From positions 64,001 to 128,000 of the IMG/VR virus record IMGVR_UViG_3300037010_002844: DNA of 64,000 nt; one strand, written 5' to 3'. The translations under genes and the position numbers were made by a program. Of this stretch, positions 1 to 53,250 are shown one piece after another (position 1 is the stretch's first letter; every line of letters begins with the position of its first letter). This DNA comes from a virus. The notes below the pieces were generated by a model. The model made no database searches. It had not been told where the DNA came from and worked only from the letters and a program-made list of their open reading frames with translations.

Positions 1-254
1 CAAGCCTTCCAGACCGCTGGTGCTCCACCGGGGATGTCATTGACGTTCCGTGACATGGAGCGATACCATTCAATCTCACGAGCCACGTAGTCCTGATTGA
101 CCGTTCCGAAGATCGATGTTTCGTTAGCGATGAACGTAGCACCGACGACCTCGATCATCTTGCAACCAGACTTGTCAGTAACGTGTTCCTGGCGTTCCTT
201 GAGGTCCTTAAACAAGGAGCGAACATCGGCAACCTTGTATTGAATTTGAATCAA
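1..254 (-). CDS. Deoxypyrimidine (dCMP/dUMP) hydroxymethylase, T4 gp42-like. Only the N-terminal 84 codons are present; the rest lies beyond the window edge.
   Basis: Not in the ORF track because it runs off the edge. My minus-strand translation from TTG 254-252 is IQIQYKVADVRSLFKDLKERQEHVTDKSGCKMIEVVGATFIANETSIFGTVNQDYVAREIEWYRSMSRNVNDIPGGAPAVWKA. It aligns without gaps to my recollection of the T4 gp42 N-terminus (VDKTGVKTIEIIGASFVADEPFIFGALNDEYIQRELEWYKSKSLFVKDIPGETPKIW). GGAGG lies 5 nt upstream of the TTG. Confidence 0.75.
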   Translation of the reverse strand, partial: MIQIQYKVADVRSLFKDLKERQEHVTDKSGCKMIEVVGATFIANETSIFGTVNQDYVAREIEWYRSMSRNVNDIPGGAPAVWKA

Positions 255-443
255 CTATTCCTCCACGCTTCTCGATGTTTTGATTACCAGCGATCCATTC
301 TTTAGACTCACAAGCTCCAAGAGCACCGGTTCTTGTTGGGAAGGTAGAAACCCAGCAAACTTCGCAGTGTCGACATGTTCTCTTAGAGCAGTGCGTAGAT
401 CATTACTGCTTGTAACAGCGTGTGTTGTTTCGATGATTTTCAT
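255..443 (-). CDS. Hypothetical 62-aa protein, translationally coupled between the epimerase and the hydroxymethylase.
   Basis: Internal ATG at 443-441 overlaps the epimerase TGA (ATGA). Its TAG at 255-257 directly abuts the TTG start of the next gene. Sequence starts MKIIETTHAVTSSNDLRTALREHV... Confidence 0.45.
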   Translation of the reverse strand: MKIIETTHAVTSSNDLRTALREHVDTAKFAGFLPSQQEPVLLELVSLKNGSLVIKTSRSVEE

Positions 444-1399
444 GTGTGCAGCTTCAATACCTTGGTCCACGACCAGTTGTCCTCGTACCACTTGATGGTG
501 CGGTCCAAGCCGTCCCAGAATCGTACCACGGGGATGTACCCGAGTACACGCTCAGCTTTCGAAACGTCGGCCTGCGTGTGCATCACATCACCCGGGCGCC
601 AAGGGGCATCGACATAGGAAGCGCCCGGATAACGACGCTTGAGCTCCTCAAGGATCTCTTTGTTCGTCGTTCGATCACCGCACGCCACGTTGAATGTTTC
701 GGCTCCAAGCTTTCCAGAATACGTGGCTGCCTTCATGCAGGCTGACACCACGTTGTCCACGTAACACATGTCACGGGACTGTGAGCCGTCACCGTCGGAG
801 CGCATAGGCACGCCTTTCTTGATCGCCGTCAACCACGCAGAAACCGCAGTAGCGTACGGTGAATCGCCGAGTTGATTGGGTCCGAAGACGTTGAAGAACC
901 GCATGCAGGCTGAGTCGAGACCGTAAAGCTCGCTGTACAACCGCAGATAGTCCTCAATGATCGCCTTCTGCAGAGCATAAGGCGACTTGGGATTCCGTGG
1001 AAAAGTCTCAGGGGTCGGCAGCACATCAGCGCCTCCGTACACAGATGAGCTGGAGGCGAAGACGACGTGATTGACATTGCCCTTGCAAGCCTCCAGGAGG
1101 AGCAATGTCTTGTCGACGTTGACCTCATGCGTTCTCAAGGGATAGAGGACTGAGTAAGAGACCCGCGGGACCGCCGCCAGGTGAATGACCGTGTCAAACT
1201 CCTGACGCCTGATCCGATCGAGGACCGTGGAGTTCGCAAAGTCGTTGGGTTGAAAGCGCACTGCGATGGGCGATGGCAAGAATTCGCGGTGACCGTTGCT
1301 CAGGTCATCGACGCAGGTGACGTGCCACCCAGCATCTAGACACGCCTTCGTCAGGTTCGAACCTATAAAACCCGCGGCACCCGTAATCAAAACTCTCAT
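440..1399 (-). CDS. NAD-dependent sugar-nucleotide epimerase/dehydratase (extended SDR, UDP-hexose/pentose 4-epimerase-like).
   Basis: N-terminal Rossmann motif VLITGAAGFIGSNL. Catalytic ASSSSVYG ... SPYALQK (S...YxxxK). Length of 319 aa is typical. Confidence 0.85.
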   Translation of the reverse strand: MRVLITGAAGFIGSNLTKACLDAGWHVTCVDDLSNGHREFLPSPIAVRFQPNDFANSTVLDRIRRQEFDTVIHLAAVPRVSYSVLYPLRTHEVNVDKTLLLLEACKGNVNHVVFASSSSVYGGADVLPTPETFPRNPKSPYALQKAIIEDYLRLYSELYGLDSACMRFFNVFGPNQLGDSPYATAVSAWLTAIKKGVPMRSDGDGSQSRDMCYVDNVVSACMKAATYSGKLGAETFNVACGDRTTNKEILEELKRRYPGASYVDAPWRPGDVMHTQADVSKAERVLGYIPVVRFWDGLDRTIKWYEDNWSWTKVLKLHT

Positions 1400-1431
1400 G
1401 AGGTCATTATATGCCTCACAGAGTCCTTAGT

Positions 1432-2226
1432 TCAACGGGTCGTGTTTAGCGACAAAAAGATGGTACCCCGGACAGGGTCAGCATCCAAGACACCACGAAT
1501 TGACGGGCTGGTGTAGTCGGCAAACAAACCCTCATCGGAAGTGTCTGCTAGGATCGCAGCAGGATCCTCGATCGAGGACTCAAATCCAAGCTTTATCATG
1601 ACCTCATCAAGATATATTGACACTTTCATGCACTGCTCGGGCGGAACCATCATACTGCACTTCGTCTTCAACGTCTTTGCATCCGGCATGGGCGAACAGG
1701 TGACCTTCGTCCCCTTGAGGCGTATGGCCTCACGCACAGCATTGACGACCTCAGTCAGCGTCTTCGGAGCCTTCTTGATGAGAGCAGTTGTCTTCGAACC
1801 CGACATCACGGAAACGACGGCCGTTGCCAGTGCCTTCGGATCGAACTTTGCGGGCCTGTGACCTGGGGCATAGTTCATGGCGTTGAAGTAACTGTCCGCC
1901 ATGTCAAGAACTGCATCGTGAACGTAGAACTCGACCATATCGAGCCACGTATCATGGCGTTCTGCAGGATCACGGATGCCAGACATCTCGGCCTCGATAT
2001 TGGTCCACGCCTCGTAAATCGCGCCGAAGATGGGCCCACCTTCGTAATCCTCATCGAGGGCCTCGTCGACGAGATCATCCGGCGCACCGGCCTGTTCGAG
2101 CGCCATGGCAAATGCCTTGCGAAACTCGGAAAATGACTTCGGAGGCGCTGCAGCGGCCTCCATGAGGTTGGCTACGACGGCGAGTACCTCTTCACGGATC
2201 ATTTGAACAAGCTCTGACTTCTTCAT
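1432..2226 (-). CDS. Hypothetical protein carrying the shared N-terminal leader motif.
   Basis: 264-aa ORF. N-terminus is MKKSELVQMIREEV (I-x-E leader, see findings). The AT-rich palindrome GGTAATAATTACC lies 20-32 nt upstream of the start. Confidence 0.6.
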   Translation of the reverse strand: MKKSELVQMIREEVLAVVANLMEAAAAPPKSFSEFRKAFAMALEQAGAPDDLVDEALDEDYEGGPIFGAIYEAWTNIEAEMSGIRDPAERHDTWLDMVEFYVHDAVLDMADSYFNAMNYAPGHRPAKFDPKALATAVVSVMSGSKTTALIKKAPKTLTEVVNAVREAIRLKGTKVTCSPMPDAKTLKTKCSMMVPPEQCMKVSIYLDEVMIKLGFESSIEDPAAILADTSDEGLFADYTSPSIRGVLDADPVRGTIFLSLNTTR

Positions 2227-2285
2227 CGGCGGAGTCTCCCTGGCAGGTAATTATTACCTTAGGCGGAGGGGGCCTATAACTAGGC

Positions 2286-2530
2286 CTACACTTCTCGCAA
2301 GAGTGCCCTTGAAATTGCCAGACGACCACCGAAATTGATGTTTTTGAACTCAGCACTAACGAGTCCCCCACAGAATACGCAAGAATCCGTGGGTCTGACG
2401 GGCACTTTCTTTAGCTCTTCGATGCGCTTCTTTTCTTTCTCACGGGCAGCCTCAGCAACCTCTTTGAAGCGCTTTTCTCTTTATTTGCAGGTAGACTGTC
2501 GAGCCACCTCGCGAAAATGAATTGATCCAT
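2286..2530 (-). pseudogene. Small ORF broken by a frameshift (or an assembly indel).
   Basis: MDQFIFARWLDSLPANKEK (frame of ORF 2411..2608) is followed, in another frame, by a start-less open stretch 2289-2480: EKRFKEVAEAAREKEKKRIEELKKVPVRPTDSCVFCGGLVSAEFKNINFGGRLAISRALLREV*. The frames meet at the A-rich run near 2470-2485. Confidence 0.35.
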
Positions 2531-2553
2531 GTGATCGGGATCTTTATCGTTCT

Positions 2554-3891
2554 TCACAGCAGGTCCATGCGCTTCATCGCCATCGGCGTCGTGGCCTCGT
2601 ACGAACATCGAGCTCGGACGACCGTCCGCAGACGATCGAGCCAGTCCTTCATGTACGCAGGTCGTTCCTTGATGTTATGAATCAAAGCTGAAGCAATGTG
2701 ATGCAGATCCTTGAAGTCCGGCGACGCCAAGAAGGGCCACTTACTGGCCTCCTGAGCGATGCTCGAATATTCGAAGTTATCGATCCACAGAGGCATACAC
2801 CCGAGCTCAATGCATTCTCGAGCGGCGGTGCCCCCATAGGTGTCCTGATCATAGAGGCTGACAGCGATGTCAGCCTGACGACAGATGACCTTGAACTCGT
2901 CGCGGTTAAAGGCATCCGGGACCAATGAAACGTAGCCATTAGGCCCGCACTCCTTCTCGAGCTCGTGGTTGAAGAACTTCTGGCTGGGGTTGCCCGCTAG
3001 CACAACGAAGTCCTGGCGCAGTTCACGGAGTTTCGGCAAGATGTCAAACATGAACTTGCCACAGTTGGTGTAGTCCGACGAACGACCGCGCCCGCCGACA
3101 CGGTTCGGGACGAAGAGGATGACCTTGCCTTCGGCGTGCCAGCGATTCAACAGGTCGGGATCAAACCTGACGTTGCTCATGTCGGGCTTAGAGTTGATCT
3201 CCTCGGCTGAGTAACCATCGTCCCAGGGATCCGACTTCATCAAGATGTCATTGACAATGTCCCGCTTCAGGACATTGTCAGCCTCGCGCTCGAACTCCTT
3301 CAAGGCCGAGGGACACTGCCAGAAGTTCCAGTCAGCCTTTATGGCTGCCTCAAGCTGGCCGAACCAGAGCGAGGCCTCTTCCGGAAACTTGGGACAAGAA
3401 GGTACGTCGACGAAGTGACTGTGCACGTAAAACCTGGGCCTATAACCACCAGTCACGTGGAACAACGCCTTGAAGTTGCGAAGGTGCATTGGGTCGTTGA
3501 TGTAGACCGCGTCCCACTTGGGCTTTTTGCCGATCTTCTGCATTCCGAGATCAAGGGCACTGGCGAGTGCCGACCAGTTGAAGTCGTACCGTGTCACCAA
3601 CGCGTTGGCGATGATCTCGTGCTCGATGAAATTCAGACGGCGCTCGCCATCCTCACCGTACTTGGCCCACAGGTCAGCATTGACATCCCGGGGATCTGTG
3701 ATAACCTGACGACCAGCGGGATCACCCGTCTTGGGGCACATCACGTCAATGTGAAGGTCAGGATTGAGCTTCAGCATTTCACGGACGCGGCCCATCACCA
3801 TCTGCCATCCTGAGTCACATTCGAGCAGAAACTTACCGTAGGTATTGTAATTGCTCAACTGTGTCTCGATCAAGAGCCTCTTGTGTTCCAT
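2554..3891 (-). CDS. GT-B fold glycosyltransferase (GT1/GT4-like); candidate DNA or sugar glycosyltransferase.
   Basis: 445 aa. The C-terminal half reads VILFVPNRVGGRGRS...VVLAGNPSQKF...YGGTAARECIELGCMPLW, which resembles the nucleotide-sugar binding E-x7-E region of GT-B enzymes. Confidence 0.6.
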   Translation of the reverse strand: MEHKRLLIETQLSNYNTYGKFLLECDSGWQMVMGRVREMLKLNPDLHIDVMCPKTGDPAGRQVITDPRDVNADLWAKYGEDGERRLNFIEHEIIANALVTRYDFNWSALASALDLGMQKIGKKPKWDAVYINDPMHLRNFKALFHVTGGYRPRFYVHSHFVDVPSCPKFPEEASLWFGQLEAAIKADWNFWQCPSALKEFEREADNVLKRDIVNDILMKSDPWDDGYSAEEINSKPDMSNVRFDPDLLNRWHAEGKVILFVPNRVGGRGRSSDYTNCGKFMFDILPKLRELRQDFVVLAGNPSQKFFNHELEKECGPNGYVSLVPDAFNRDEFKVICRQADIAVSLYDQDTYGGTAARECIELGCMPLWIDNFEYSSIAQEASKWPFLASPDFKDLHHIASALIHNIKERPAYMKDWLDRLRTVVRARCSYEATTPMAMKRMDLL

Positions 3892-4044
3892 GAAGCAGTA
3901 TCTACTACTTGTTTATCAAGTTGTATTGGGTTGAAGGAAAAGGCAAGCGATCAGGCCAAGCGACAAACGTCGATCAATCGCTATGGCGTCAAATGCTATG
4001 CAAGCACCTGAAGCTCTAGAAAAAAGACATGTCTCGAACACAGA

Positions 4045-4170
4045 CTATAGGCAACACATTGGGTGCAATAATCTTGCCTCCACACTTTTTGCTTCCATGA
4101 GAAGACACTCCATACCATAGTGGTTCTTGTAGTCAGAAGTGTCTTTCCCATAGTAGCAACAGGGGTGCAT
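4045..4170 (-). CDS. 41-aa Cys-rich micro-ORF (MHPCCYYGKDTSDYKNHYGMECLLMEAKSVEARLLHPMCCL).
   Basis: ATG 4170-4168 shares one base with the methyltransferase TGA (TGATG). HPCC and HPMCC motifs sit at the two ends. No homolog recognised. Confidence 0.25.
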   Translation of the reverse strand: MHPCCYYGKDTSDYKNHYGMECLLMEAKSVEARLLHPMCCL

Positions 4171-4853
4171 CAGGTCGCCTTCTTGTAGACACGAGTGTTC
4201 TTGCGGTAGAAGCTCGCAAAGGCACACTTCAGGCGATTGCCCTTACCTGGCACCTTGAGGTTGGCAAATGCAGCTGACAACGCGGGATCGACCACGTACC
4301 CGCGGGTCGCCATCTTCTTGATGACCTCGTCGACCGGTTGGCAGTTGACATGGTGACGCCCCCACTGTGGGTGCCAATCTGGCCCTCCCGGCAGGCGCTC
4401 GCCCAACCGATTGACCTTCAACGTCAAGTTGGCATCATAGGTACCCCAGCCCGAGGCCACGCCGAAGACTACGAGCCTCGGATCCGGCGACAACAGGCAG
4501 TCCAAAAAGTTCGACTCTTTGTCATGAGTCACGTGTTCCATCGCCTCGAGCGACATGCAGACATCGCGTGAGCCCACCGTCAGGTTCTGAGGCGACACAG
4601 TCCCAATGTCGATCTTTTGGAAGTTCTTGACATCGATCCTCAGCTGATTGACGTCAGCGAAGCCATCGCAGCCCCAGACCGGGATGCTGCCCTCGAGCGG
4701 CTCCAACCAATCACCTTGACCGCAGCCGAAGTCGGCAATCGACTCAGCCTTCAGAACATTCAAAACGAAATCCTTCCACGCCGGTAGCCCGTGAGCGAAA
4801 TACTGCCGACCATCGTCAAAGAAGCCACTGTCGTAATTGATGGGTTTTGCCAT
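4170..4853 (-). CDS. Class I SAM-dependent methyltransferase.
   Basis: Motif I is IADFGCGQGDW, post-I is WGCDG, motif II is DVCMSLEAMEHV. I place the start at ATG 4853-4851 (MAKPINYD), 1 nt after the upstream TGA, rather than at the ORF-track start 4916. Confidence 0.7.
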   Translation of the reverse strand: MAKPINYDSGFFDDGRQYFAHGLPAWKDFVLNVLKAESIADFGCGQGDWLEPLEGSIPVWGCDGFADVNQLRIDVKNFQKIDIGTVSPQNLTVGSRDVCMSLEAMEHVTHDKESNFLDCLLSPDPRLVVFGVASGWGTYDANLTLKVNRLGERLPGGPDWHPQWGRHHVNCQPVDEVIKKMATRGYVVDPALSAAFANLKVPGKGNRLKCAFASFYRKNTRVYKKAT

Positions 4854-4854
4854 G

Positions 4855-5394
4855 TCAGTCCTTGTTAAGGAAGTCGATGATTTCCTCGGTCTCGCGGGCG
4901 AGGTTCTCGTCGTCAACGTTCAACCTCAAGATCCTGCACTTCGACCAACTTGCAAATTCCTCATAGGCGCTGTGAAGGCTGGTCAGCAGCTCTTCTCCAA
5001 TGCTAGGGTCGAGGTCGTCCTTGATACCCGCGTAATTGGAGCGTTGCGCAAAGATCACGCGAGCGCCCAATGATGCCCATGCCTCGTCCATGTGTCGCAG
5101 CATCATCAAGTCGGTCTCACGGCCAAATACCTTTGCATATGCATACTCACACGGAAAGCCTCGGTCGAAGATGACACTGTAGCCCGTTTGCTTCAACAGG
5201 TCATATACACGGGGATCTGCGAAACGCAGTTGATTCAAGAATTTGTCGTTCTTGGTGACCCGCGAGCTTAGAAATGAGGTGTATTCTGAGGTCGCCTTGA
5301 AATACGGAATGCCAGTTACCCGCGAAAGCTCGCGGGCCATCTCGGTCTTACCACAACGATCTGGTCCGACAAAAAACGTTAGTGATTGTTTCAT
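4855..5394 (-). CDS. P-loop nucleoside/nucleotide kinase (Tmk/dNMP-kinase-like).
   Basis: Walker A is FFVGPDRCGKTEMA. A Tmk-like DRGFPCEYAYAKVFG segment is present. 179 aa. Confidence 0.6.
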   Translation of the reverse strand: MKQSLTFFVGPDRCGKTEMARELSRVTGIPYFKATSEYTSFLSSRVTKNDKFLNQLRFADPRVYDLLKQTGYSVIFDRGFPCEYAYAKVFGRETDLMMLRHMDEAWASLGARVIFAQRSNYAGIKDDLDPSIGEELLTSLHSAYEEFASWSKCRILRLNVDDENLARETEEIIDFLNKD

Positions 5395-5509
5395 TTACTT
5401 CCTTCCAGATTACGTCTGGATCTTGACGGGCAAGATCAAATACAATCTTGGGAAATCAACATCTGTTACTACACGAAACTCTATCCCGCGTTACGCCATG
5501 CCGATTATC

Positions 5510-6079
5510 TTAAACCGTGGGAATCGGCGTGTTCAGCTCGGGCGCATCTTGCACGTTTTCATAGTTCACGTAGAGCCCGTGACTGCCCACGCCCTTGCGC
5601 ACGTGTCCCAGGGACTCGCAGAAGACCACGTACTGCGCCAGCTGTTCCTCAACCTTCGACACCTCACCCACCTGGTCCTTGCCACGGTGCTTAAAGGTCA
5701 CACGTTGGCCCACAGAATATTTGGGAGTAACCCCATGGTGGTTTACCCATTCCGCGATCAGAGAATTGTGAGCCTTGATTCGCATGTAAGCTACATCCTC
5801 CAAGAGGTGGAGGAGCTCGTGATCAACCTCCCAGTAGTGAATGTTGTCCAACATCTTGGCAATGTCGTACGCATCGTCGTCGAACCTGACGGCACTTCTC
5901 AGGTCATCATGGATCTCCTTCAGGTAGGATTTCTCAAACTTGTCGGTGTCATCGCCCGCGGACTTCATCCACTGAATGACGCGTGGCATCAGGGCATCGA
6001 GCAGGCGCTCGAGCACCTCGGGATCCGTGCGATTCGGGCGAGGCGGCCAACCGCAGCCGAAGAGGACCTGCTGCTTCAT
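5510..6079 (-). CDS. Hypothetical protein.
   Basis: 189-aa ORF with an ATGA overlap to the upstream gene. No motif recognised. Confidence 0.5.
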   Translation of the reverse strand: MKQQVLFGCGWPPRPNRTDPEVLERLLDALMPRVIQWMKSAGDDTDKFEKSYLKEIHDDLRSAVRFDDDAYDIAKMLDNIHYWEVDHELLHLLEDVAYMRIKAHNSLIAEWVNHHGVTPKYSVGQRVTFKHRGKDQVGEVSKVEEQLAQYVVFCESLGHVRKGVGSHGLYVNYENVQDAPELNTPIPTV

Positions 6080-6267
6080 GGTTTGCTACTGTCGTAGAGT
6101 TCCTGTAGGGAGTTTGTGATCGTTTGGATGATTCCTGGTCGAATTCGGACCCAACACGGACTGCACAGCAACCCACGATTGGTGTGCCACTTTTGTGGGT
6201 CGAACGCCCAGTGAGGTGCCCCGCACTCAGGACAGGTGACCTTGACAATATCATCATTCGACGACAT
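6076..6267 (-). CDS. Small zinc-ribbon protein.
   Basis: CPECGAPHW...CSPCW (CxxC...CxxC). 63 aa. Confidence 0.5.
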   Translation of the reverse strand: MSSNDDIVKVTCPECGAPHWAFDPQKWHTNRGLLCSPCWVRIRPGIIQTITNSLQELYDSSKP

Positions 6268-6344
6268 GACATGAAAGTACTTTAGTACGCCCTCGGTTTA
6301 CACTTAGGCGTGCACCCGCACGATGGAGGGAATAATTACCATGC

Positions 6345-9300
6345 ATGAAGGTCACCCTGGGCACATTGCGCGAGTCAATCCTAGAAAGCTACGTTGAGAT
6401 TCTCGTCGAAGGCCGCATAGAAGACGCCCGTGAACGGTACCCTGACATTTCCGACGAGGACTTCGATGACCTAGTCGAGAATCAGCCGCAAGGGTCCAAC
6501 AACAAGTACCTGATGTGGTGTGCCAAGCAGGTCGACGATGGCTTTTCAGTCAACGTCGTCGTCCAGAACATGCGATTGTTCGACGGCAACAAGCAGCGAC
6601 TCGAGAAGAAGGACATCAACCAGTATGAAGATCCCAGCGCCATCGAGACCGCTGTCCAGGCCTTGGGTGGCAAGTCGAAGAGCCAGGAGTCCAAGCAGGC
6701 CAAGGCTGATTCTGACGTGATCTACAATGATGATCACTGGTTGGTCATCCGTCCTCACACCATGGGAGCCTCCTGCAAGTACGGCATCGGAACCAAGTGG
6801 TGCATTGCAGCGACCACGAGCCACAACTACTTCTCGACGTATTCAACCAGCAACAACAAGTTCTACTTCGTCATTGACAAGACGCAGTTGCAGACCACAC
6901 CCCCGCCTCCGAGTTCCAAGTACGCCATCGTCATTCGTGACGAGGCGGGCCGCAATAATGAGGCCTACGATGCCTCTGACAAACGAGTCCCGGTATCGAC
7001 AGTTGCTAAACACGTGGGCGTCGAGTGGCCGGCAATCTGGTCAAAGATTGAGGCTCACGTCAAGAAGGTCCCACTGACCCGTGAGGTTGAGGACGAACAA
7101 CGCGCGGTTGAGGAGCATGTCAATGACCTGATGGCGGGCAAAGACGTGTCTTCGCAGGCGCTACAAAAAATCGCCAAGAGTGCCAAGATGACGTTGCGGG
7201 TGGTGCAGAAGGTCTATGATCTCGCGGCGAAGAAGGTCGAGACCGGAGAAGACAAGTACATGCTTTCATTCTTGATGTATGCGCTCAGCGACAACATCGG
7301 CAACTTGACGCCCGATGCGGCGATGTTCTTCATTCAGAAGATCGGCGATGGCGGCAACAGCTACTACATCAAGCGGGCCATCGAACATGCCAACCTGACA
7401 GAAGAGAACTTCACGCAGTTGGTGAAGAGCGGCAACGAGGCCGTCATCGCGGCCATCATGGAGAATCCACGCGCTCCTGACGCATTGAAGGACGAGATCG
7501 TTAAGGTCATTCCGAACTTCAAGAATGACATGGCAAAACACGATGCATGGTGGGCCTTGATCAAAAGCGGGCGCTACACGCTTGAGCAGTTCAAGGAAGC
7601 CGTGGAAAGCAGCTCTGCTTCACATTACCACGTCGTCGCAGGTCAGGTGTTGAGACACATTGACGAACTGAACTTGACGCCCGAGCAGCTCATGTTGATC
7701 CCCGTCACTGACGAATACGACCTGAAGAACATCATGAAGGCACCCAACCTGCCACCGGCTCACCTAGGTGCCTTGATCGTTAAGCTCCGTGACAAGTTGT
7801 CGACGCAGTTCTTGATCAAGTTGTTGAAGCAGTCGAACATCGACTCTGACACTGTCGAGTTGTTGTGGAAGTCGGTCACGCCCGACATCAGGACGGCGCT
7901 ATTGCAGAACCCGTCGATCGGAGCGTCAAATGCCAGCAAGTTCGCCCTCAGCAAGAATCACGCCTACCGCTTTGCGGTGGCCCACAATCCGGTCACGCCC
8001 AAGGAGGACCTAGCTGTCCTCGCAGGTGATGAGTCGACTTCTACGCGGGCCGCGGTGGCTGCTAACCCCAACACGCCCGTTAATGTTCTGAAACAGCTAT
8101 CCCGCGATGAGGCCGTCGCCATCCGCGCGGCTGCCGCGTCAAATGCCGCTGTCGGCAACGATGTCCTGCAGGCCTTGACCAAAGACAGCGACAACTTCGT
8201 CAGGAGGGTCGCTCGCAAGACTCTGAAGTCCCTAAAGGTCGCTGAGGCCTATGTCAAGGCTGCGATGGGCATGCGTAGGATCTTGTTGGAAGAGCTCAGC
8301 GACGAAAACGAGAACCAGGACATCATGAATCCCTCCTGGCGCGACATCTCGACAAAGTCTCTCAAGTCTGACGAGTTCATTGTCATCTTCTTGCTGCAGA
8401 ACAACGGCCACGCCACCCGCGAAGAAATCGAGTCAGCATGGTTTGACTGGATGGGTCGCCTGGTTCGACGCCACGATTTGTGGAAGAGCACTCAACACGG
8501 CAAGGAACCCGTGCGAGGCATCAATGCCAGCGGCTCAGCTTGGTACTGGGCACCGCCGGGTATCGACAAGGGCGCGCTGTTCCAGCTGACGCCCGCGGGC
8601 GCGGCTGCTGCCATGCATGCCCTGAACAAGGTTCGTGGCAGCGTTGAGCCAAGGCGCTCTGAGGTCGGCTCGGCCGGCGCACGCCCGGGCAGGACGTACT
8701 ACATCAGCAATGATGTCTCGGCTTTTGACATCACCGGCCGCGAAAATGACGAGATCGAAAGTGAAGAGATCGAGGTCAATCGTTACTCTTCCGAGCCCGT
8801 CATCCGCGGTGGCAAGTACACGAAGTTGTCACCGAATCGCAGCCGTGCGTCCAGGATGCGCACCAAGGGCGCGGTCTACTGGAAGTTCACGAGCCCGAAT
8901 GGCCGTGAGACGTACACCAAGAACCTACCTCAGGTTGCCTTGAAGCGCGGTGCCGAGGTCACATACGTCAAGGCTGTCCATGCTCCGGGTAGCGGTGGTC
9001 ACCCGTACAACATGGCGATGGTCAAGTATGGCGACAGGTACCTGTTGACCGCATTCCCGTTGATGACGACGGCCTCGGGCGCCCGTGAGGAAAATGCACC
9101 AGAAAACGTGGCGCCGCCGATTAAGAAGTCGCCGCCGTCGAAGGCAACAGCTGCCGCGCCCGCCGCAGCTGCAGCGATTGAGCCCACGGCAGCCAAGGGT
9201 CCGAAGACGACCTACAAAATCTACGGCCGATTCAAAGGTCACCCGGCCGCGACGCGATTGAAAGGTCAAGCCTACGTGGCCGGACAAGACACGCAGTTCT

Positions 9301-9404
9301 CGGCCGGTGAGCAGGCAGTCATTTCCAAGACGGACGACGGCAAGCTCAAGGTCAAGAAGGCTGACTCGGATCACAGCCAGATCTGGGAGCCGATTGACGG
9401 CTAA
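6345..9404 (+). CDS. Large (1019 aa) LRV/HEAT-like repeat protein with the N-terminal leader motif; candidate packaged virion protein.
   Basis: N-terminus is MKVTLGTLRESILESY. The central region has repeats of the leucine-rich-repeat-variant type (AVAHNPVTPKEDLAVLAGDESTSTRAAVAANPNTPVNVLKQLSRDEAVAIRAAAASN). There is an Ala/Pro-rich linker near the C-terminus. It is one of the few plus-strand genes. Confidence 0.7.
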   Translation: MKVTLGTLRESILESYVEILVEGRIEDARERYPDISDEDFDDLVENQPQGSNNKYLMWCAKQVDDGFSVNVVVQNMRLFDGNKQRLEKKDINQYEDPSAIETAVQALGGKSKSQESKQAKADSDVIYNDDHWLVIRPHTMGASCKYGIGTKWCIAATTSHNYFSTYSTSNNKFYFVIDKTQLQTTPPPPSSKYAIVIRDEAGRNNEAYDASDKRVPVSTVAKHVGVEWPAIWSKIEAHVKKVPLTREVEDEQRAVEEHVNDLMAGKDVSSQALQKIAKSAKMTLRVVQKVYDLAAKKVETGEDKYMLSFLMYALSDNIGNLTPDAAMFFIQKIGDGGNSYYIKRAIEHANLTEENFTQLVKSGNEAVIAAIMENPRAPDALKDEIVKVIPNFKNDMAKHDAWWALIKSGRYTLEQFKEAVESSSASHYHVVAGQVLRHIDELNLTPEQLMLIPVTDEYDLKNIMKAPNLPPAHLGALIVKLRDKLSTQFLIKLLKQSNIDSDTVELLWKSVTPDIRTALLQNPSIGASNASKFALSKNHAYRFAVAHNPVTPKEDLAVLAGDESTSTRAAVAANPNTPVNVLKQLSRDEAVAIRAAAASNAAVGNDVLQALTKDSDNFVRRVARKTLKSLKVAEAYVKAAMGMRRILLEELSDENENQDIMNPSWRDISTKSLKSDEFIVIFLLQNNGHATREEIESAWFDWMGRLVRRHDLWKSTQHGKEPVRGINASGSAWYWAPPGIDKGALFQLTPAGAAAAMHALNKVRGSVEPRRSEVGSAGARPGRTYYISNDVSAFDITGRENDEIESEEIEVNRYSSEPVIRGGKYTKLSPNRSRASRMRTKGAVYWKFTSPNGRETYTKNLPQVALKRGAEVTYVKAVHAPGSGGHPYNMAMVKYGDRYLLTAFPLMTTASGAREENAPENVAPPIKKSPPSKATAAAPAAAAAIEPTAAKGPKTTYKIYGRFKGHPAATRLKGQAYVAGQDTQFSAGEQAVISKTDDGKLKVKKADSDHSQIWEPIDG

Positions 9405-10067: not shown

Positions 10068-11198
10068 TTACGTGATTTCCCTCAACTTCCAGACCGTCGT
10101 CGACGCGCCAAAGTCGTCCCTCTTGACCTCGGCACAACACAGGATGAAGGGGTCAGGAAGCTCCTTGCCGCCCCAGACAGAAATCTTCGTGGCCTTGCCA
10201 GTGGGTCCAACCGCAAAGATTTGCACATATTCCTTGCCATTGCGGGTCTTCTTCTTGATGCCCGTCACCGGCTTGCCACCCTTCTTTGCAGCAACAGGGG
10301 CCGTGACAAACCAGACGACCGCCGTGTCACCGTGCTCCAGGTCGTCAATGCTATTGACGCCCTTCTTCTCCAAGGCAGCCAAGATTTCGATGTCAATCAT
10401 GGCGGTGACGTCCAAAGCACCGAAGACGTCGACCATATTTTGAGCACGTTCAGAAGACGACCAGTCCTCGATGTCAGCGTAGTCCCTGACCAACTGGTAG
10501 AAGTTCTTAAGGCCCTCGTGCGGGTCAGACTTCGGGTGTCGCTTGATCAACGCCCCGTGATCGATGTCGACCTCTTCGGTGACCTCGACGCCCTTGCGCT
10601 TCTTGGTCACGGTCTCCACGTGAGAACCGAAGAGGACCTCGTGCATGTGATGATAGTTGTTGAAGACCTTGCCTTCGCCCACGATGTCCATACTGCCGAA
10701 GGCACCGATCTTGACCAGGGCCTCCATCGCCTTCTTGTTGAACTTGCTGTGTTTCCACTCGAAGTTGTCATCCCACAGCAACTCCTCGATAGTGTTGTAG
10801 GGACGGTTGGCCATGATCTCTTCGACCGCCGAGTCGCCGACACCCTTGCAGGACGTCATCGACGGCATCAACTTCTTGCCGGGCAGCGCGGTCCACCCGA
10901 GCCCCGCCAGGTTGATGTCGATCGGGACGATCTGATAGCCCAAGGCCTTTACCTCGCTGAACGCCTTAGCACGTTGAGCAGGAGTGTGCGACATGCTTTC
11001 GAGATAGGCACACAGCCATTCCTCCTCGTGATATGTCATCAGCCAGGCGCACCAGAAGCTGTCAATGGCGTATGCCACTGCATGGCTGTTAGACGTCAGT
11101 ATCCCGTTAGCGAGATAGAACTGGTGATCCGGGTGATCGACTTCGAGGTCATAGGTCTGGTGTCGACCCACGGGTGTGATAGACTTGATGTTACTCAT
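10068..11198 (-). CDS. dnaE: DnaE (Pol III alpha) fragment 8 of 8: C-intein 7 plus the C-terminal extein.
   Basis: C-intein 7 at 11088-11198 is MSNIKSITPVGRHQTYDLEVDHPDHQFYLANGILTSN. The extein at 10071-11087 starts SHAVAYAIDSFWCAWLMTYHEEEW, which matches the DnaE KSHAAAYA helix onward. Confidence 0.85.
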   Translation of the reverse strand: MSNIKSITPVGRHQTYDLEVDHPDHQFYLANGILTSNSHAVAYAIDSFWCAWLMTYHEEEWLCAYLESMSHTPAQRAKAFSEVKALGYQIVPIDINLAGLGWTALPGKKLMPSMTSCKGVGDSAVEEIMANRPYNTIEELLWDDNFEWKHSKFNKKAMEALVKIGAFGSMDIVGEGKVFNNYHHMHEVLFGSHVETVTKKRKGVEVTEEVDIDHGALIKRHPKSDPHEGLKNFYQLVRDYADIEDWSSSERAQNMVDVFGALDVTAMIDIEILAALEKKGVNSIDDLEHGDTAVVWFVTAPVAAKKGGKPVTGIKKKTRNGKEYVQIFAVGPTGKATKISVWGGKELPDPFILCCAEVKRDDFGASTTVWKLREIT

Positions 11199-11419
11199 GT
11201 GAGCAGGTCCTTCAACAGGTCTTCGATCGCTCCTGCGTTCGGTTCATCAAGCATTGCTTTAGCATACTCTTCTTCAATGTACTCGTCAGTCGGCTGGAGT
11301 TCAACCTTCGTTTCGCTTTTGCGTCGGTAACGTGCCGCGGCCCGTAACAGTTCGATCGGACTCAGACCCATGCGTTGGGCAATGTCATTCAGTGCGATTT
11401 CAAACGGCGGTCTTTTCAT
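11195..11419 (-). CDS. Small hypothetical protein (possible HTH) inside the intein-7 gap.
   Basis: 74 aa, with IALNDIAQRMGLSPIELLRAAARY. Overlaps the neighbouring genes at both ends. Confidence 0.4.
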   Translation of the reverse strand: MKRPPFEIALNDIAQRMGLSPIELLRAAARYRRKSETKVELQPTDEYIEEEYAKAMLDEPNAGAIEDLLKDLLT

Positions 11420-13344: not shown

Positions 13345-13345
13345 A

Positions 13346-13591: not shown

Positions 13592-13662
13592 GTCTAAATT
13601 GTCCTCAATTTGAGGTGATAGTTCAAGGCATCAGACTCCCAGACGCGGTACACCGTGAAGCC

Positions 13663-14772: not shown

Positions 14773-14856
14773 ATGTTGCGGAGTCGTGGGCCTGTTGCGT
14801 CTCTGTAAGGCGACATGGCCACGGTCGCGGCGAAACCTGCGACCAAAACGCCCGCC

Positions 14857-24211: not shown

Positions 24212-25234
24212 CTAGGCGATGACCTTCCGGAAGTAATCGATGGAACGTTTGAGGCCTTCTGCGAGCTGCACCTTGGGCTCCCACCCTAGACGATTCTGGG
24301 CTTGGGTGATGTCGGGCCGACGCTGCGTCGGGTCATCGACAGGCAGCGGTTTGTAGTCAAACCAACGGGCCACATCGCGGTGAGGTGCCTCGCGCCCACC
24401 GTAGATTTGGTGAATGACCTCCTTCGCCAACTGATTCATCGTGAACTCGTGCGGGTTGCCGAGGTTGATGGGCATCCGCGGGTTGTTGCCCAGATCGCCC
24501 AAGGTCACAATGCCTTTGATCAGGTCGTCCACGTAACAAAAGCTACGTGTCTGTTGACCGTCACCGTAGATCGTCAACTTCTCGCCCTTCAAGGCCTGGA
24601 CGATGAAATTGCTGACGACCCGGCCATCGTATGGGTCCATGTGCGGACCGTAGGTGTTGAAGATCCGGACCATGCGAGCGTCGACACCGTGGGTATGTAG
24701 GTAGTCATAGCACAGGGCCTCTGCCGCACGTTTTCCCTCGTCGTAACAGGCTCTGGGCCCGTAGGAGTTGACGCGACCTCGGTATGACTCGACCTGCGGC
24801 GAACTCTCGGGATCACCATAGACCTCAGAAGTCGAAGCGTGGACCACGATCGATCCATGCGATGCCGCCAGTTCCAGGACGTTCTGGACGCCTAGCGTAC
24901 AGGTCATCATGGTCTCCACGGGCATGCGCTGGTAGATGGGCGGCGATGCTGGGCAGGCGAAGTTGTAGATGATGTCGAAGCGTACCGAGTGCATCGACCC
25001 GGTGTCGTAATCGTGAATCACGCGACTAAAGCGACTGTCTCCATGGACGTCAGCGATATCGCAGTACATCAACGTCGCCAGCGGAAACTTCTTGATCTCA
25101 TCGACCTGAATCGACTCCGGCTTCGACGAACAGAAATTGTCGAGGCCGAGGACCTTGTCACCCGCCCTCAAGTGATGTAGCATCAAGTGCGAACCCAGAA
25201 AACCAGCGGCTCCCGTGACGAGGACAGTCTTCAT
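24212..25234 (-). CDS. UDP-glucuronate decarboxylase (UDP-xylose synthase)-like extended SDR.
   Basis: VLVTGAAGFLGSHL, then ASTSEVYGDPESSPQVESYRGRVNSYGPRACYDEGKRAAEALCYDY. This closely matches the UXS signature ASTSEVYGDP...GPRACYDEGKR as I recall it. Confidence 0.85.
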   Translation of the reverse strand: MKTVLVTGAAGFLGSHLMLHHLRAGDKVLGLDNFCSSKPESIQVDEIKKFPLATLMYCDIADVHGDSRFSRVIHDYDTGSMHSVRFDIIYNFACPASPPIYQRMPVETMMTCTLGVQNVLELAASHGSIVVHASTSEVYGDPESSPQVESYRGRVNSYGPRACYDEGKRAAEALCYDYLHTHGVDARMVRIFNTYGPHMDPYDGRVVSNFIVQALKGEKLTIYGDGQQTRSFCYVDDLIKGIVTLGDLGNNPRMPINLGNPHEFTMNQLAKEVIHQIYGGREAPHRDVARWFDYKPLPVDDPTQRRPDITQAQNRLGWEPKVQLAEGLKRSIDYFRKVIA

Positions 25235-29933: not shown

Positions 29934-29937
29934 AACA

Positions 29938-51563: not shown

Positions 51564-52013
51564 TCACTGCCTCCCCGTGCTACCGAAGCCGCCCTGTCCG
51601 CGATCAGTCAACGATAGCTCTTCCGAGCCCTCGAAGACCGCCTGAATAACTGGCGCAATCACCAATTGGGCAATCCTGTCGCCTTTTCGAACATAGAAGT
51701 GAGTGTTCGAAGAATTGCGCAGGATGACCTTCACCTCGCCTCGGTAGTCAGAATCAATGGTTCCTGGTGAGTTCAACACGGAGATTCCATGCTTTGCAGC
51801 CAGACCTGACCGCGATCGAACCTGTCCCTCGTACCCAGGCGGAATTTCGAGGAACAATCCCGTCGAGATCAGTGCCTGGCCATGCGCCCTGACTTCCTTG
51901 TCCTCGTCAGCAATGATGTCACAGCCCGCCGCGCCGGCCGTTTGATAGGCCGGCGCATTGGGACCGCGAAACTTGATGGTGACCTTGGTGACGAAGTAGT
52001 CCTTGTCAGTCAT
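51564..52013 (-). CDS. dut: Trimeric dUTPase.
   Basis: AGAAGCDI, GQVRSRSGLAAKHGI, PGTIDSDYRGEV and GGFGSTG motifs. I placed the start at ATG 52013 (MTDKDYF), which overlaps the recA stop (ATGACTGA). Confidence 0.9.
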   Translation of the reverse strand: MTDKDYFVTKVTIKFRGPNAPAYQTAGAAGCDIIADEDKEVRAHGQALISTGLFLEIPPGYEGQVRSRSGLAAKHGISVLNSPGTIDSDYRGEVKVILRNSSNTHFYVRKGDRIAQLVIAPVIQAVFEGSEELSLTDRGQGGFGSTGRQ

Positions 52014-53250
52014 CGCCCACGACCTCATCGTCATCAGAGTCAGGCGTTTCGCCTTCTCCCGCCACCTCGCCACCGTGAACGGTCAATGCTGCGTCAATGA
52101 CCTTGTCGATGAAAGGCTTGAAGACCTCGTCCTTCATCAAATCACCGAAGTCGTCCTTGTAGAACTTCTTCTCGATCAGGACTTCACCCGTCTCAGCATC
52201 GCTGACGAGCAGTTCCTTCCAGGCCTGGGTACCTGAAATCTTGATCTCCACCTTCTTCACGTTCCCCTTGGAGTCCGTGTAATCGGCAAAGACCTTGTTC
52301 TTATCGCACCATGAGCGACACTCATCGAAGATGAAGGTGTGTTCCACAATGCCTTTGCCGAAGTGAATGTCGAACTCACACTTTCGGAAAGGCGCCGCGA
52401 CCTTGTTCTTCTTGATAGAGACGGTCACGTGAATGCCGATGATGTTGCCTGCCTTGTCCTTGATGGGGCTGCCTGAGCCCAATCGAATCCGCAGCGAGGC
52501 GTGGAACGGAATGGCCTTGCCACCCGGGGTCGTCATCGGATCACCGTGCATCACCCCGATCTTTTCGCGGAGCTGGTTGATGCAGATGAACGTCACGTTA
52601 TTCTGACCGATGACGCCAGTGATCTTGCGCATACCCTTGCTGATGACGCGGGCCTGCAGACCGACCGTGTTCTGGTCGTAGTCGCCGTCGAGCTCTGCCT
52701 TCGGCGAGGTGGCAGCGACGGAGTCCCAAATCACGAGGATCGGGATGTTTTTGTCGACGATCTGCTTCGCCTTGTTGATCGTGGACTCCACGATGGCGAA
52801 GACCTCCTCGGTGCAGTGGGTATCGCAATAGACGAATTTCTTCGCCACGTTGATGCCCATGTGCCGCAGCTTATCAAGCGGCGTCGCGTTCTCAGTGTCT
52901 ACGTAAACAACGAGACCGCCCATCGACTGGACGACTGCTGCTGCATGGTATGCAAGGTGTGACTTGCCCGATGAAGGCAGGCCAGAGATCTCGATGATGC
53001 GTCCCTCGGGATAACCGCCCCCGAGAGCATTTCGAATCGCGTAGTTCAGTTGGATCGACCCTGTGTCGATCCACCGCTTAACAACCGTCGGTGCTTCGTC
53101 CTCACTCAGATTGTACGCCACCCGGACGCCGAACTCCTTGTTGAGCGCCTTGATGAGGTCGGAGGTGAGATCATCGATCTCATCCCCCGGCTTCTTCTTA
53201 GACGTCTTCTCGGAATCGACGTTGGGGGCTGCCTTAGCTGCCCTCGCCAT
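52006..53250 (-). CDS. recA: RecA-family recombinase.
   Basis: Walker A ISGLPSSGKSHL. ICINQLREKIGVMHGDPMTTPGGKAIPFHASLRIRL is nearly the RecA [35 protein letters not shown] segment. Confidence 0.85.
   Translation of the reverse strand: MARAAKAAPNVDSEKTSKKKPGDEIDDLTSDLIKALNKEFGVRVAYNLSEDEAPTVVKRWIDTGSIQLNYAIRNALGGGYPEGRIIEISGLPSSGKSHLAYHAAAVVQSMGGLVVYVDTENATPLDKLRHMGINVAKKFVYCDTHCTEEVFAIVESTINKAKQIVDKNIPILVIWDSVAATSPKAELDGDYDQNTVGLQARVISKGMRKITGVIGQNNVTFICINQLREKIGVMHGDPMTTPGGKAIPFHASLRIRLGSGSPIKDKAGNIIGIHVTVSIKKNKVAAPFRKCEFDIHFGKGIVEHTFIFDECRSWCDKNKVFADYTDSKGNVKKVEIKISGTQAWKELLVSDAETGEVLIEKKFYKDDFGDLMKDEVFKPFIDKVIDAALTVHGGEVAGEGETPDSDDDEVVGDD

Follow-up and report, generated by a model that had tools for sequence, protein, structure and literature searches.

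The left end of the 64,000 nt stretch of viral DNA analysed here (the window) encodes what we think is, on balance, a module for cytosine hypermodification. The source is an uncultivated jumbo phage (contigs up to ~310-370 kb), whose DNA would contain glycosylated 5hmC, with the sugar coming from a non-glucose donor that the phage makes itself. The phage encodes PolIII-alpha and ThyX, and no cultured phage has a helicase more than 36 % identical to the one found here.

Organization of the locus

The genes at the left end of the window lie where the initial annotation had placed them, all on the minus strand: a kinase, a methyltransferase-like gene, a glycosyltransferase (GT), a 264 aa ORF, an epimerase, a 62 aa ORF and a fragment of a gp42-type gene (Table 1). 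The junctions that had been described are real: the 62 aa ORF and the epimerase overlap by ATGA (440-443), TAG-TTG (252-257) joins the 62 aa ORF to the gp42-type gene and TGA-n-ATG (4851-4857) joins the kinase to the methyltransferase-like gene. The genes do not, however, form the single unbroken translationally coupled chain that had been proposed, as non-coding gaps at 3892-4169 (278 nt) and 2227-2553 (327 nt) divide the row into three blocks. The leftward transcription unit probably begins with the 189 aa and 63 aa ORFs; eight relatives have the 189 aa ORF upstream of the kinase (31-44 % identity by tblastn).

Table 1. Features of the module and of related genes in the window
Feature	Position	Strand	Remarks
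T4 gp42-type dCMP hydroxymethylase, first 84 codons	1..254	-	TTG start 254-252; GGAGG 5 nt upstream
62 aa ORF	255..443	-	Overlaps epimerase stop, abuts hydroxymethylase start; accessory
NAD-dependent SDR sugar-nucleotide 4-epimerase (GalE, WbgU, WbpP or TviC-like)	440..1399	-	Core member; PF01370, E=6e-51
264 aa protein	1432..2226	-	Accessory, not core; N-terminal ~140 aa domain widespread, C-terminus variable
GT-B (GT4-like) glycosyltransferase, 445 aa	2554..3891	-	Proposed 5hmC-DNA glycosyltransferase; family without Pfam coverage
Class-I SAM-methyltransferase-like, 227 aa	4170..4853	-	ATG start 1 nt past kinase stop; accessory
YorR/thymidylate-kinase-like P-loop nucleotide kinase, 179 aa	4855..5394	-	Core member; proposed 5hm-dCMP kinase
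Two ORFs, 189 aa and 63 aa	5510..6267	-	Co-directional, upstream of kinase; PHROGs without assigned function
UDP-glucuronate decarboxylase (UXS, UDP-xylose synthase)	24212..25234	-	E=4.5e-83 vs human UXS1
All-alpha NTP pyrophosphohydrolase (NTP-PPase), 128 aa	40544..40930	-	dUTPase_2 and PRA-PH; candidate dCTPase (T4 gp56 analogue)
Canonical Tmk	41677-42258	-	PF02223, E=8e-13
ThyX	42267-43031	-	PF02511, E=7e-37
Trimeric dUTPase	51564..52073	-	PF00692, E=1.7e-32

Nearly all of 32 related loci, among which GT identity falls as low as 47 %, have the order kinase, GT, epimerase, ThyA homologue, TK, dCMP deaminase on one strand. The epimerase is present in 30 of the 32 and always lies between the GT and the ThyA homologue where this trio is ordered as in the window. 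The gene set initially proposed for sugar decoration is upheld in part: kinase, GT, epimerase and ThyA homologue are syntenic in about 30 relatives, but the methyltransferase-like and 264 aa genes are accessory.

The ThyA homologue is predicted to be a dCMP hydroxymethylase

The N-terminus of a gp42-type enzyme had been recognised at the left end of the window, and the data agree with this. The 84 aa fragment matches T4 dCMP hydroxymethylase (PDB 1B49) with E=5e-19 and is 55 % identical to T-even-type orthologues. The complete gene (219 aa) is on an overlapping contig (L001:5535-6194), whose epimerase product is identical to that of the window. The full-length enzyme matches T4 gp42 with E=8e-76. 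It is missing ~27 C-terminal residues of the T4 protein, a point against the proposed pathway. Cys148, Asp179, Asp145, Asp171 and Glu60 (T4 numbering) are all retained in the alignment. Asp or Asn in the active site had been put forward as the residue that would decide between C and U; the overlapping contig shows Asp, pointing to cytosine. In terms of E. coli ThyA (Ec), the enzyme has the catalytic Cys and has Asp at the N177, L143 and D169 positions. Asp at Ec-N177 is read as dCMP specificity and Asp at Ec-L143 as transfer of a hydroxymethyl rather than a methyl group, and RB69 gp48, a 5hodCMP synthase, has Asn at Ec-D169 (PMC13326640). The three Asp residues and the catalytic Cys therefore predict that the product is 5-hydroxymethyl-dCMP and not dTMP, hmU or 5-hydroxy-dCMP. 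The Asp/Asp signature is present in all 30 ThyA homologues recovered from the relatives, despite their falling into three divergent types.

The family carries the label 'thymidylate synthase' in PHROG and NCBIfam, and an ordinary thymidylate synthase or a dCMP methylase would give T or 5mC, without a hydroxyl handle. We consider this extremely unlikely: the NCBIfam ThyA equivalogs score 34-50 bits, all far below their cutoffs of 108-405 bits, Asn177 and Leu143 are both replaced by Asp, and the phage already has ThyX. It is harder still to credit that the enzyme is a flavin-dependent 5-hydroxy-dCMP synthase like those of RB69, DLP3 and RL38J1, with the sugar placed directly on the cytosine O5. 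The kinase, GT and ThyA homologue architecture is the same as in these phages, but Asp is kept at Ec-D169 and the diagnostic Asn is missing. In addition, the aligned enzyme shares 54 % identity with T4 gp42 but only 25-27 % with RB69 gp48, and the PDB thymidylate-synthase entry 9iqu/9iqc (234-238 aa) reaches only E=1e-9 against the full-length protein.

Kinase and nucleotide-pool enzymes

Fold comparison confirms the earlier description of the kinase as Tmk-like and places it nearest to mononucleotide kinases; hhalign relates it to RB69 gp45 with 78 % probability. A tblastn search gave no match to the kinase in any phage genome, those of 5-HMUDK phages included. There is no gp1 homologue in the 64 kb window, with ~80 % of the genome lying outside it. 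In RB69 and DLP3 a separate gp1-type dNMP kinase has been shown to act on modified dCMP and the YorR-like kinase has a putative role (PMC13326640), which counts against the step proposed for the kinase here. P-loop kinases beside ThyA homologues phosphorylate 5hmU in the DNA of ViI, M6 and SP10 (PMC5889632), and a kinase working in this way on 5hmC in DNA would prepare the base to receive a substituent other than a sugar. This is very improbable given the fold of the kinase and the tblastn result. Additionally, none of the partner genes usual in those pathways (aminotransferase, PLP, radical-SAM or glycosylase-fold) was seen, and the conserved partner is instead a GT.

ThyX, Tmk, dUTPase and an all-alpha NTP-PPase had been reported elsewhere in the window and all four have the family matches expected. 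The canonical Tmk and ThyX make ordinary dTTP, which argues that thymine is not the modified base. The NTP-PPase (phrog_12184, E=2e-16) aligns with the last 61 residues of T4 gp56 (38 % identity, pairwise E=2e-11), and on the basis of these 61 aligned residues it is a candidate dCTPase.

Glycosyltransferase and donor sugar

Sequence searches with the 445 aa protein gave no match in Pfam, PDB or PHROG, and no similarity to T4 a-gt or b-gt was found. Its description as a GT-B enzyme, which sequence alone could not show, is confirmed by structure prediction. It matches structural templates similar to those given for the DNA arabinosyltransferases of DLP3 and RB69, namely BshA, PimA (2gej) and SPS (6kih) (PMC13326640). 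Synteny and analogy with known phage DNA glycosyltransferases suggest that the enzyme acts on 5hmC in DNA.

The assignments of the 4-epimerase and of the UXS at 24212 both stand (Table 1). The best PDB matches of the epimerase are UDP-HexNAc 4-epimerases (E=1e-44 to 1e-54); the Ser/Tyr/Lys triad is retained and Thr occupies the position of E. coli GalE Y299. The UXS gene is on the far side of an intein-expanded PolIII gene, 19 kb from the cluster in the window, a distance that counts against the proposed pathway. Orthologues (54-64 % identity) occupy the equivalent position in L004, L006, L010, L013 and L017, the five relatives whose flank extends to UXS, and in L022 an additional SDR immediately follows the GT. 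The donor sugar is probably made by the phage and is probably not glucose; UDP-Xyl, UDP-L-Ara and a 4-epimerised hexose or HexNAc are the candidates.

Polysaccharide pathways, too, typically include an epimerase and UXS, which counts against a DNA sugar. The phage may make 5hmC, fully or partly, and yet use the GT, epimerase and UXS to glycosylate another target, such as a virion protein, a small molecule or a glycan of the host envelope, the early-gene region being no more than their location. We regard this as unlikely. In about 30 divergent relatives the GT keeps its place with the kinase on one side and the ThyA homologue on the other, even in relatives with a substituted ThyA homologue of a type 26-32 % identical. 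The module is surrounded by genes of nucleotide metabolism and replication rather than structural genes, and the kinase, GT and ThyA homologue trio occurs in three phages for which DNA glycosylation has been characterised experimentally. Palindromes of 4 and 6 bp are not depleted, which is weakly consistent with protected DNA.

Accessory genes

The methyltransferase call holds to the extent of a weak similarity to Methyltransf_23 (E=0.004, under the Pfam cutoff). Protein searches gave 94 homologues, of which 25 have PF13489, compared with 415 for the GT. The best PDB matches of the protein are Hen1 methyltransferase domains (E=0.005), in which DFGCGQG and the E-x-x-E-H motif both align. Five of the 32 relatives have a close copy (68-74 % identity, threshold 50 %), and 25 of the 30 viral-contig relatives have none. 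The gene may O-methylate the sugar, which is the weakest step of the scheme. There is about an even chance that it is outside the DNA pathway, either as a Hen1-like RNA 2'-O-methyltransferase acting with RNA-repair genes or in another accessory or anti-defence role. Consistent with this, the PDB similarity is solely to Hen1, PNKP, RNA ligase and RlaP are encoded in the window, both close copies and homologues are few, and the kinase-GT interval of relatives contains Acb2/Tad1-like and Apyc1 genes. However, the gene is well conserved (64-79 % identity) in the relatives that have it and always directly follows the kinase there, the RNA-repair genes are 30 kb away and the N-terminal domain of bacterial Hen1 is absent.

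The methyltransferase-like and 264 aa genes had both been counted as members of the module, but most of the 30 relatives lack them or have other genes in their place, and they lie in or beside a slot that elsewhere carries anti-defence genes and homing endonucleases. Searches of Pfam, PHROG and NCBIfam found no family for the 264 aa protein, which is detectable in only four of the 32 relatives; it has 128 representative clusters, many of them proteins of 110-150 aa. The 62 aa ORF is not conserved in the relatives, its only tblastn match being in L011 (48 %).

Proposed pathway and comparison with known systems

Taken together, the data suggest the following pathway. The gp42-type enzyme, judging by its sequence signature, would convert dCMP into 5-hydroxymethyl-dCMP, which the adjacent kinase, by analogy, would phosphorylate; host NDP kinase would give the triphosphate. 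The gp56-like NTP-PPase would remove dCTP and the phage PolIII would then put 5hmC into DNA. After replication, the GT would move a sugar from a UDP-sugar to the 5-hydroxymethyl group. The phage would make or tailor its own donor using the 4-epimerase beside the GT and ThyA homologue and the UXS across the PolIII gene; UXS followed by the 4-epimerase would give UDP-L-arabinose, the other possible donors being UDP-xylose and a 4-epimerised hexose or HexNAc. ThyX, Tmk, TK and dCMP deaminase would keep thymidine canonical.

The initial comparison with the T-even phages needs updating. The phage resembles T4 in having a gp42 at orthologue level with all catalytic and specificity residues, a gp56-like NTP-PPase, dCMP deaminase and TK, and a GT-B enzyme beside the hydroxymethylase, the place of beta-gt in T4. 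In contrast, its GT has no sequence similarity to a-gt or b-gt, its kinase is YorR/Tmk-like where that of T4 is gp1-like, it has its own 4-epimerase and UXS where T4 draws on host UDP-glucose, and it is a jumbo phage, unrelated to T4, that encodes PolIII-alpha and ThyX.

Among described architectures, the nearest is that of RB69 (gp45-48), DLP3 (gp78-80) and RL38J1 (gp214-216), which have proven cytosine-glycosylation clusters of kinase, GT and ThyA homologue (Lee et al., NAR 2026, PMC13326640). The three-gene module, the YorR/Tmk-like kinase fold (YorR is the top hit of both the window kinase and DLP3 gp78), the GT4-like fold with similar templates and the nearby phage-encoded donor-sugar genes are shared. 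The ThyA homologues differ: theirs are flavin-dependent with Asn at Ec-D169, whereas the window enzyme is T4-like with Asp, so that the predicted handle is CH2OH and not OH. Their donor synthesis uses arabinose-5-P isomerase, kinase-uridylyltransferase and phosphatase, or UDP-Gal mutase; that of the window would use SDRs (4-epimerase and UXS).

Glycosylation of 5hmC by GT and epimerase pairs has already been shown experimentally (Pyle et al., bioRxiv 10.1101/2023.12.21.572611). In that study, metavirome clusters of MT/TET (5mYOX), GT and sugar epimerase ('subclass II') gave Hex, HexNAc or HexA on 5hmC, and GT-B enzymes were often beside thymidylate-synthase homologues. There too the epimerase paired with the GT supplies the donor, but 5hmC is made after replication by a C5-methyltransferase and a dioxygenase, whereas in the window it would be made before replication by the gp42-type enzyme, kinase and NTP-PPase; Pyle et al. 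report neither a pentose route nor UXS. Shewanella phage Thanatos has a pentose, putatively xylose, on cytosine and encodes UDP-xylose metabolism (PMC12838424), as the window phage may do. However, Thanatos has a UDP-xylose pyrophosphorylase, where the window phage would start from UDP-GlcA and use UXS, and the Thanatos ThyA homologue belongs to the 5hoC type (PMC13326640), in contrast with the 5hmC predicted here.

If the proposed pathway is correct, the modification would protect the DNA against restriction enzymes and CRISPR, and the module would be a new version of the T4-style concealment of DNA from bacterial defences.

Gene arrangement at the left end of the window

Transcription of the leftmost 6.3 kb of the window runs to the left (see table). 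The gene junctions described in the initial annotation are all real on re-inspection of the sequence. The chain of genes is cut into three blocks by two non-coding gaps, 278 nt and 327 nt long, and a search of both for small ORFs gave nothing convincing. A scan of positions 1-6500 for promoters and terminators gave match counts that were not above those in shuffled sequence.

The gene adjoining the cluster on the opposite strand encodes a 1019-aa LRV-repeat protein, whose final ~60 residues match the C-terminus of a DnaJ/WGR gene found beside the UXS gene in two related loci (L004 and L006). Downstream of the hydroxymethylase gene, on a contig (L001) that overlaps the window and runs past its end, there are two HslV-like peptidase genes in tandem and a gene for a CCA-adding enzyme, which is divided between two ORFs in this phage and forms one 380-aa ORF in L004.

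Coordinates of the genes discussed (window unless a related locus, L, is named)
Feature	Coordinates	Strand	Remark
Two small ORFs	6267-5510	-	no assigned function
Kinase-like protein, 179 aa	5394-4855	-
Methyltransferase-like protein, 227 aa	4853-4170	-	ATG 1 nt past kinase stop
445-aa protein (GT)	3891-2554	-
264-aa protein	2226-1432	-
SDR epimerase, 319 aa	1399-440	-
62-aa ORF	443-255	-	ATGA overlap with epimerase stop
ORF running off window end (hydroxymethylase fragment)	TTG start 254-252	-	directly after TAG of 62-aa ORF; GGAGG 5 nt upstream
LRV-repeat protein	6345-9404	+
PolIII-alpha	10068-23762	-	with 17837-19570 (+)
UXS	24212-25234
383-aa and 386-aa proteins	26880-28031, 29938-31098	-
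HNH endonuclease	28333-28908	-
LD-carboxypeptidase	28962-29933	-
Two N6/N4 DNA methyltransferases	31125-31907, 32636-33427	-
RNA-repair set	33678-39718	-	RNA ligase 35101-35988; PNKP 37671-38675; RlaP 38762-39718
NTP-PPase	40544-40930
RNR large subunit, 1213 aa	44405-48046	-
HslV-like peptidases and CCA-adding enzyme	L001:6657-7751, L001:8355-9879
Extra SDR	L022:11339-12325
Kinase-GT slot genes	L004:9757-9996, L030:9140-9991, L015:7875-8462, L015:5506-6429
Exchanged ThyA homologue	L006:13969-14943

Active site of the ThyA homologue

The 84-residue fragment encoded at the window's end matches the T4 dCMP hydroxymethylase (E=5e-19) and is 55% identical to T-even-type orthologues. The full 219-aa gene was read from L001, which turned up when the exact epimerase sequence was looked up. 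The full-length enzyme matches T4 gp42 across residues 16-219 with E=8e-76, and the two are 54% identical as aligned; the best of the ordinary ThyA proteins reaches E~4e-13 and E. coli ThyA ~1e-9.

We aligned the enzyme with T4 gp42, RB69 gp48 and E. coli ThyA. The catalytic Cys (T4 C148, E. coli C146) is kept ('SDFICTD', compared with 'SDFMCTN' in T4) and Glu60 is conserved. There is an Asp at the position of E. coli N177 (T4 D179; 'GYKND', compared with 'GFRND' in T4 and 'LPFN' in E. coli) and another at that of E. coli L143 (T4 D145), three residues ahead of the Cys. At the position of E. coli D169 the Asp is kept ('MRSND') where RB69 has Asn ('MRSQN'), and the enzyme shares only 25% pairwise identity with RB69 gp48. 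In structure the enzyme departs from T4 gp42 only at the C-terminus, where the tail of ~27 residues is missing; the closest relatives are equally short.

A recent study gives N177D as the mark of dCMP specificity and D169N as the mark of the flavin-dependent 5-hydroxy-dCMP synthases of RB69, DLP3, RL38J1 and Thanatos, and an acidic residue at L143, which admits water, as the mark of a product with a hydroxymethyl group in place of a methyl group (Lee et al., NAR 2026, PMC13326640). By these marks the enzyme is predicted to make 5hm-dCMP and should not make dTMP, 5hm-dUMP or 5ho-dCMP. The initial annotation had proposed a T4-type hydroxymethylase and left the choice between C and U to an Asp or an Asn in the active site; the full-length gene in L001 has the Asp. 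Ordinary ThyA is excluded by the active-site residues, and 5-hydroxycytosine chemistry of the RB69 gp48 type was rejected on account of the Asp, rather than Asn, at the D169 position.

Across the lineage the ThyA homologue falls into three divergent types, one T4-like (50-82% identity) and two at 26-32%, and Asp occupies both diagnostic positions in all 30 homologues recovered from relatives. We hold it very probable that the modified base is 5hmC.

The T4-like type is 219-263 aa long; the others are 324-360 aa ('KDVPCT', with a long C-terminal extension) and ~270 aa ('DVPCTY'). The gene has been exchanged within the lineage (L006, L011, L017, L021, L022, L025, L026, L029, L030, L034-L036 and L039).

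Kinase and nucleotide pool

The kinase has a YorR/Tmk fold and is clustered with the GT and the ThyA homologue, as in the modules described for RB69, DLP3 and RL38J1 (PMC13326640). YorR is also the top match reported for the DLP3 'nucleotide kinase' that lies beside a GT, and the corresponding proteins of RB69 and RL38J1 match thymidylate kinases (PMC13326640). With hhalign, a profile of the kinase family aligned to RB69 ORF045 (78% probability); the alignment runs through the GPDxxGKT and DRGF/Y motifs. Searches of the PDB with the kinase sequence and profile gave P-loop noise only, and tblastn against 50,697 phage genomes gave no match. No gp1-type dNMP kinase was found within the 64 kb by tblastn of T4 gp1.

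The 128-aa all-alpha NTP-PPase is 38% identical to the T4 gp56 dCTPase over the C-terminal 61 residues only (the C-terminal third) and matches Pfam dUTPase_2 (E=1e-5). ThyX, Tmk and a trimeric dUTPase are encoded in the window, and TK and dCMP deaminase on L001; to judge from their sequences, these five would jointly make normal dTTP.

The window also encodes an intein-rich PolIII-alpha, an intein-containing RNR, DnaB, RecA, PolA and an RNA-repair set. PolIII-alpha is a single 1179-aa ORF in L004; here Hint/intein segments and free-standing homing endonucleases break it up into seven ORFs or more. Among the insertions are two paralogues of ~580-600 aa, with PHROG matches of the HNH and 'Mom-like' kinds. 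An intein interrupts the large subunit of the class I RNR between residues ~305 and 653. A search of positions 1-64000 gave no tRNA genes. Over the same positions, 4- and 6-bp palindromic sites are not depleted (mean z about -0.1), a weakly informative result that is consistent with protected DNA without being diagnostic. Because two N6/N4 DNA methyltransferases are encoded, the phage DNA may carry methylation too. An HNH endonuclease and an LD-carboxypeptidase lie in the same stretch (28333-33427).

The 445-aa glycosyltransferase

The 445-aa protein has no match by sequence in Pfam (including Glycos_transf_1 and Glyco_trans_4), NCBIfam, PHROG or PDB. PDB searches with its sequence and profile gave noise only, tblastn against the 50,697 phage genomes gave no match, and the 415 homologues on metagenomic contigs are all unannotated. 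The modelled protein is GT4-like and has a GT-B topology with two Rossmann-like domains. Its template matches are BshA (29.0), PimA (27.3), the sucrose-phosphate synthase 6kih (26.9), the T4 DNA alpha-glucosyltransferase (21.1) and the phage HY126 glycosyltransferase (20.9); the DNA arabinosyltransferases of DLP3 and RB69 have been reported to match BshA, PimA (2gej) and 6kih, among other templates (PMC13326640). Foldseek, run against viral models with the GT, returned phage glycosyltransferases, including those of SP-15, phiM9, KARL-1, Muldoon and SSE1, all of them phages with known or suspected modification of their own DNA.

The template matches and the phage glycosyltransferases found with Foldseek therefore confirm, at the level of the model, the GT-B fold first called from the sequence. 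DNA as the substrate is only proposed: we regard the protein as a putative 5hmC-DNA glycosyltransferase and, if the base is indeed 5hmC, think it likely that the protein acts on it.

Searches of the window by tblastn with T4 gp1, T4 b-gt and RB69 ORF046/047 found nothing, and hhalign of the GT profile with T4 b-gt gave no relationship. A second, hidden GT was sought by hhalign of the same profile with the 383-aa and 386-aa proteins near the UXS gene, again with no relationship. Neither of the two has a Pfam or PHROG match, and additional modification enzymes could be hidden here.

Sugar-nucleotide enzymes

The epimerase belongs to the GalE family of SDRs and keeps the complete Ser/Tyr/Lys triad (SSSSSVYG, YALQK), and its best solved relatives are UDP-HexNAc 4-epimerases (WbgU, WbpP and 6DNT; E=1e-44 to 1e-54). 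It has Thr at the position of the E. coli GalE gatekeeper Y299, which limits substrate size. By comparison with GalE, GALE and WbpP, the Thr implies an open, roomy pocket, and does not fix the substrate. Assignment of UDP-Xyl, Glc, GlcNAc or GlcA from the Y299 position was dropped as suggestive only.

The second SDR is a clear UXS (E=4.5e-83 with human UXS1; 2e-32 with the next non-UXS SDR), in which the SDR Rossmann motif GAAGFLGS and the Tyr-x3-Lys motif YDEGK are visible. No cluster protein, epimerase and UXS included, reached an NCBIfam equivalog cutoff. One relative (L022) has an extra SDR right after the GT, with Epimerase and RmlD_sub_bind matches and distinct from both enzymes, which hints at different sugars among members of the lineage.

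The methyltransferase-like gene

The methyltransferase-like protein has a SAM motif (DFGCGQG) and a match to Methyltransf_23 below threshold, and its 94 homologues are confined to this lineage. A profile search of the PDB retrieved only Hen1 RNA 2'-O-methyltransferase domains, weakly (E=0.005-0.16). Hen1-type enzymes combine a class-I SAM fold with an E-x-x-E-H motif that binds metal and a His further downstream; the motif of the window protein aligns with theirs (SLEAMEH against VIEVIEH), and E103, E106, H107, H167 and H168 are invariant within the family. E-x-x-E-H is common among Methyltransf_23-like enzymes. The apparent likeness to Hen1 is a lead and not membership. The enzyme could methylate a sugar hydroxyl of the modified base, could serve the phage RNA-repair genes or could be an unrelated accessory function. 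The RNA-repair set (metallophosphoesterase, RNA ligase, T4-type PNKP and RlaP nucleotidyltransferase) is relevant here because of the weak resemblance to Hen1.

Conservation of the cluster in relatives

The tblastn screen covered 3 contigs that the protein look-up had returned and 30 from IMG/VR with a gene for a GT relative. In nearly all of these the kinase, GT, epimerase, ThyA homologue, TK and dCMP deaminase follow each other in this order on one strand, with GT identity down to 47%. The UXS gene is located across the PolIII gene in all five loci with a long enough flank (L004, L006, L010, L013 and L017), and the arrangement in the window is the same but stretched to 19 kb by the intein and homing-endonuclease insertions in PolIII. 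The main rival explanation for these genes is that the sugar enzymes serve a target other than DNA, which we consider unlikely.

By tblastn the accessory genes are sparser: four relatives have the 264-aa gene and one has the 62-aa ORF, and the methyltransferase has a close copy in five, always fused to the kinase stop. The 264-aa protein was rejected as a core enzyme because it is not conserved. The interval between the kinase and GT genes is a variable slot in relatives, where there are genes for an Acb2/Tad1-like hairpin protein, the anti-Pycsar protein Apyc1, RNase T-like exonucleases, a GIY-YIG homing endonuclease and the like. The DNA-modification module looks to be set within an anti-defence island.

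Megablast of window positions 1-6300 against the 50,697 phage genomes gave no match. Identical proteins occur on contigs of up to 309 kb, the contigs of relatives reach 369 kb, and the window helicase shares no more than 36% identity with that of any cultured phage. This is an uncultivated jumbo phage without a close cultured relative.

Proposed pathway and comparison with known systems

We propose a pre-replicative route to 5hmC of the T4 kind, in which the hydroxymethylase would act with a nucleotide kinase dedicated to the route and an NTP-PPase that removes dCTP. The GT-B enzyme would then O-glycosylate 5hmC after replication, using a UDP-sugar made or tailored by the phage 4-epimerase and UXS. 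This full reading is the most economical one and, on balance, we favour it. A more specific version, which we regard as quite improbable, is that virion DNA contains pentosylated 5hmC (L-arabinosyl or xylosyl), with a donor made from host UDP-glucuronate by UXS and the 4-epimerase, and that in the sub-lineage of the window the pentose is O-methylated by the Hen1-like methyltransferase. To our knowledge, a methylated sugar on DNA has never been described. If this version were true, the sugar would be placed by a GT family without sequence-level annotation.

The proposed glycosylated-5hmC module shares its gp42-type hydroxymethyl handle with the T-even system. It shares the kinase, GT and ThyA-homologue architecture with the RB69, DLP3 and RL38J1 clusters, whose base is glycosylated 5-hydroxycytosine (PMC13326640), and the epimerase-dependent donor logic with metavirome MT/TET, GT and epimerase clusters, which put Hex, HexNAc or HexA on 5hmC (bioRxiv 10.1101/2023.12.21.572611). 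What is new in comparison with these three precedents is the added UXS, the GT family invisible to sequence annotation and the lineage without a cultured member. When we searched the literature for a DNA modification of phages with a link to UXS, none came up.

A gp42-type hydroxymethyl handle joined to SDR enzymes of the phage's own that would supply a sugar other than glucose has not been described so far. The genes are few and self-contained, and so are fit for the E. coli reconstitution assays used for the RB69 and metavirome clusters. Should the sugar on 5hmC be a new one, 5hmC labelling and studies of type IV restriction would gain new substrates and tools, and the significance would be higher if the sugar were a pentose or methylated. 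Glycosylation of hydroxymethyl- or hydroxycytosine is one of the main ways by which phages escape restriction enzymes and CRISPR, and the well-characterized pre-replicative cases that we know of are all from T4-like and Pootjesviridae phages. The module would add a glycosyltransferase family unseen by current annotation and would extend this strategy to a widespread lineage of uncultivated jumbo phages, represented by hundreds of metagenomic contigs.
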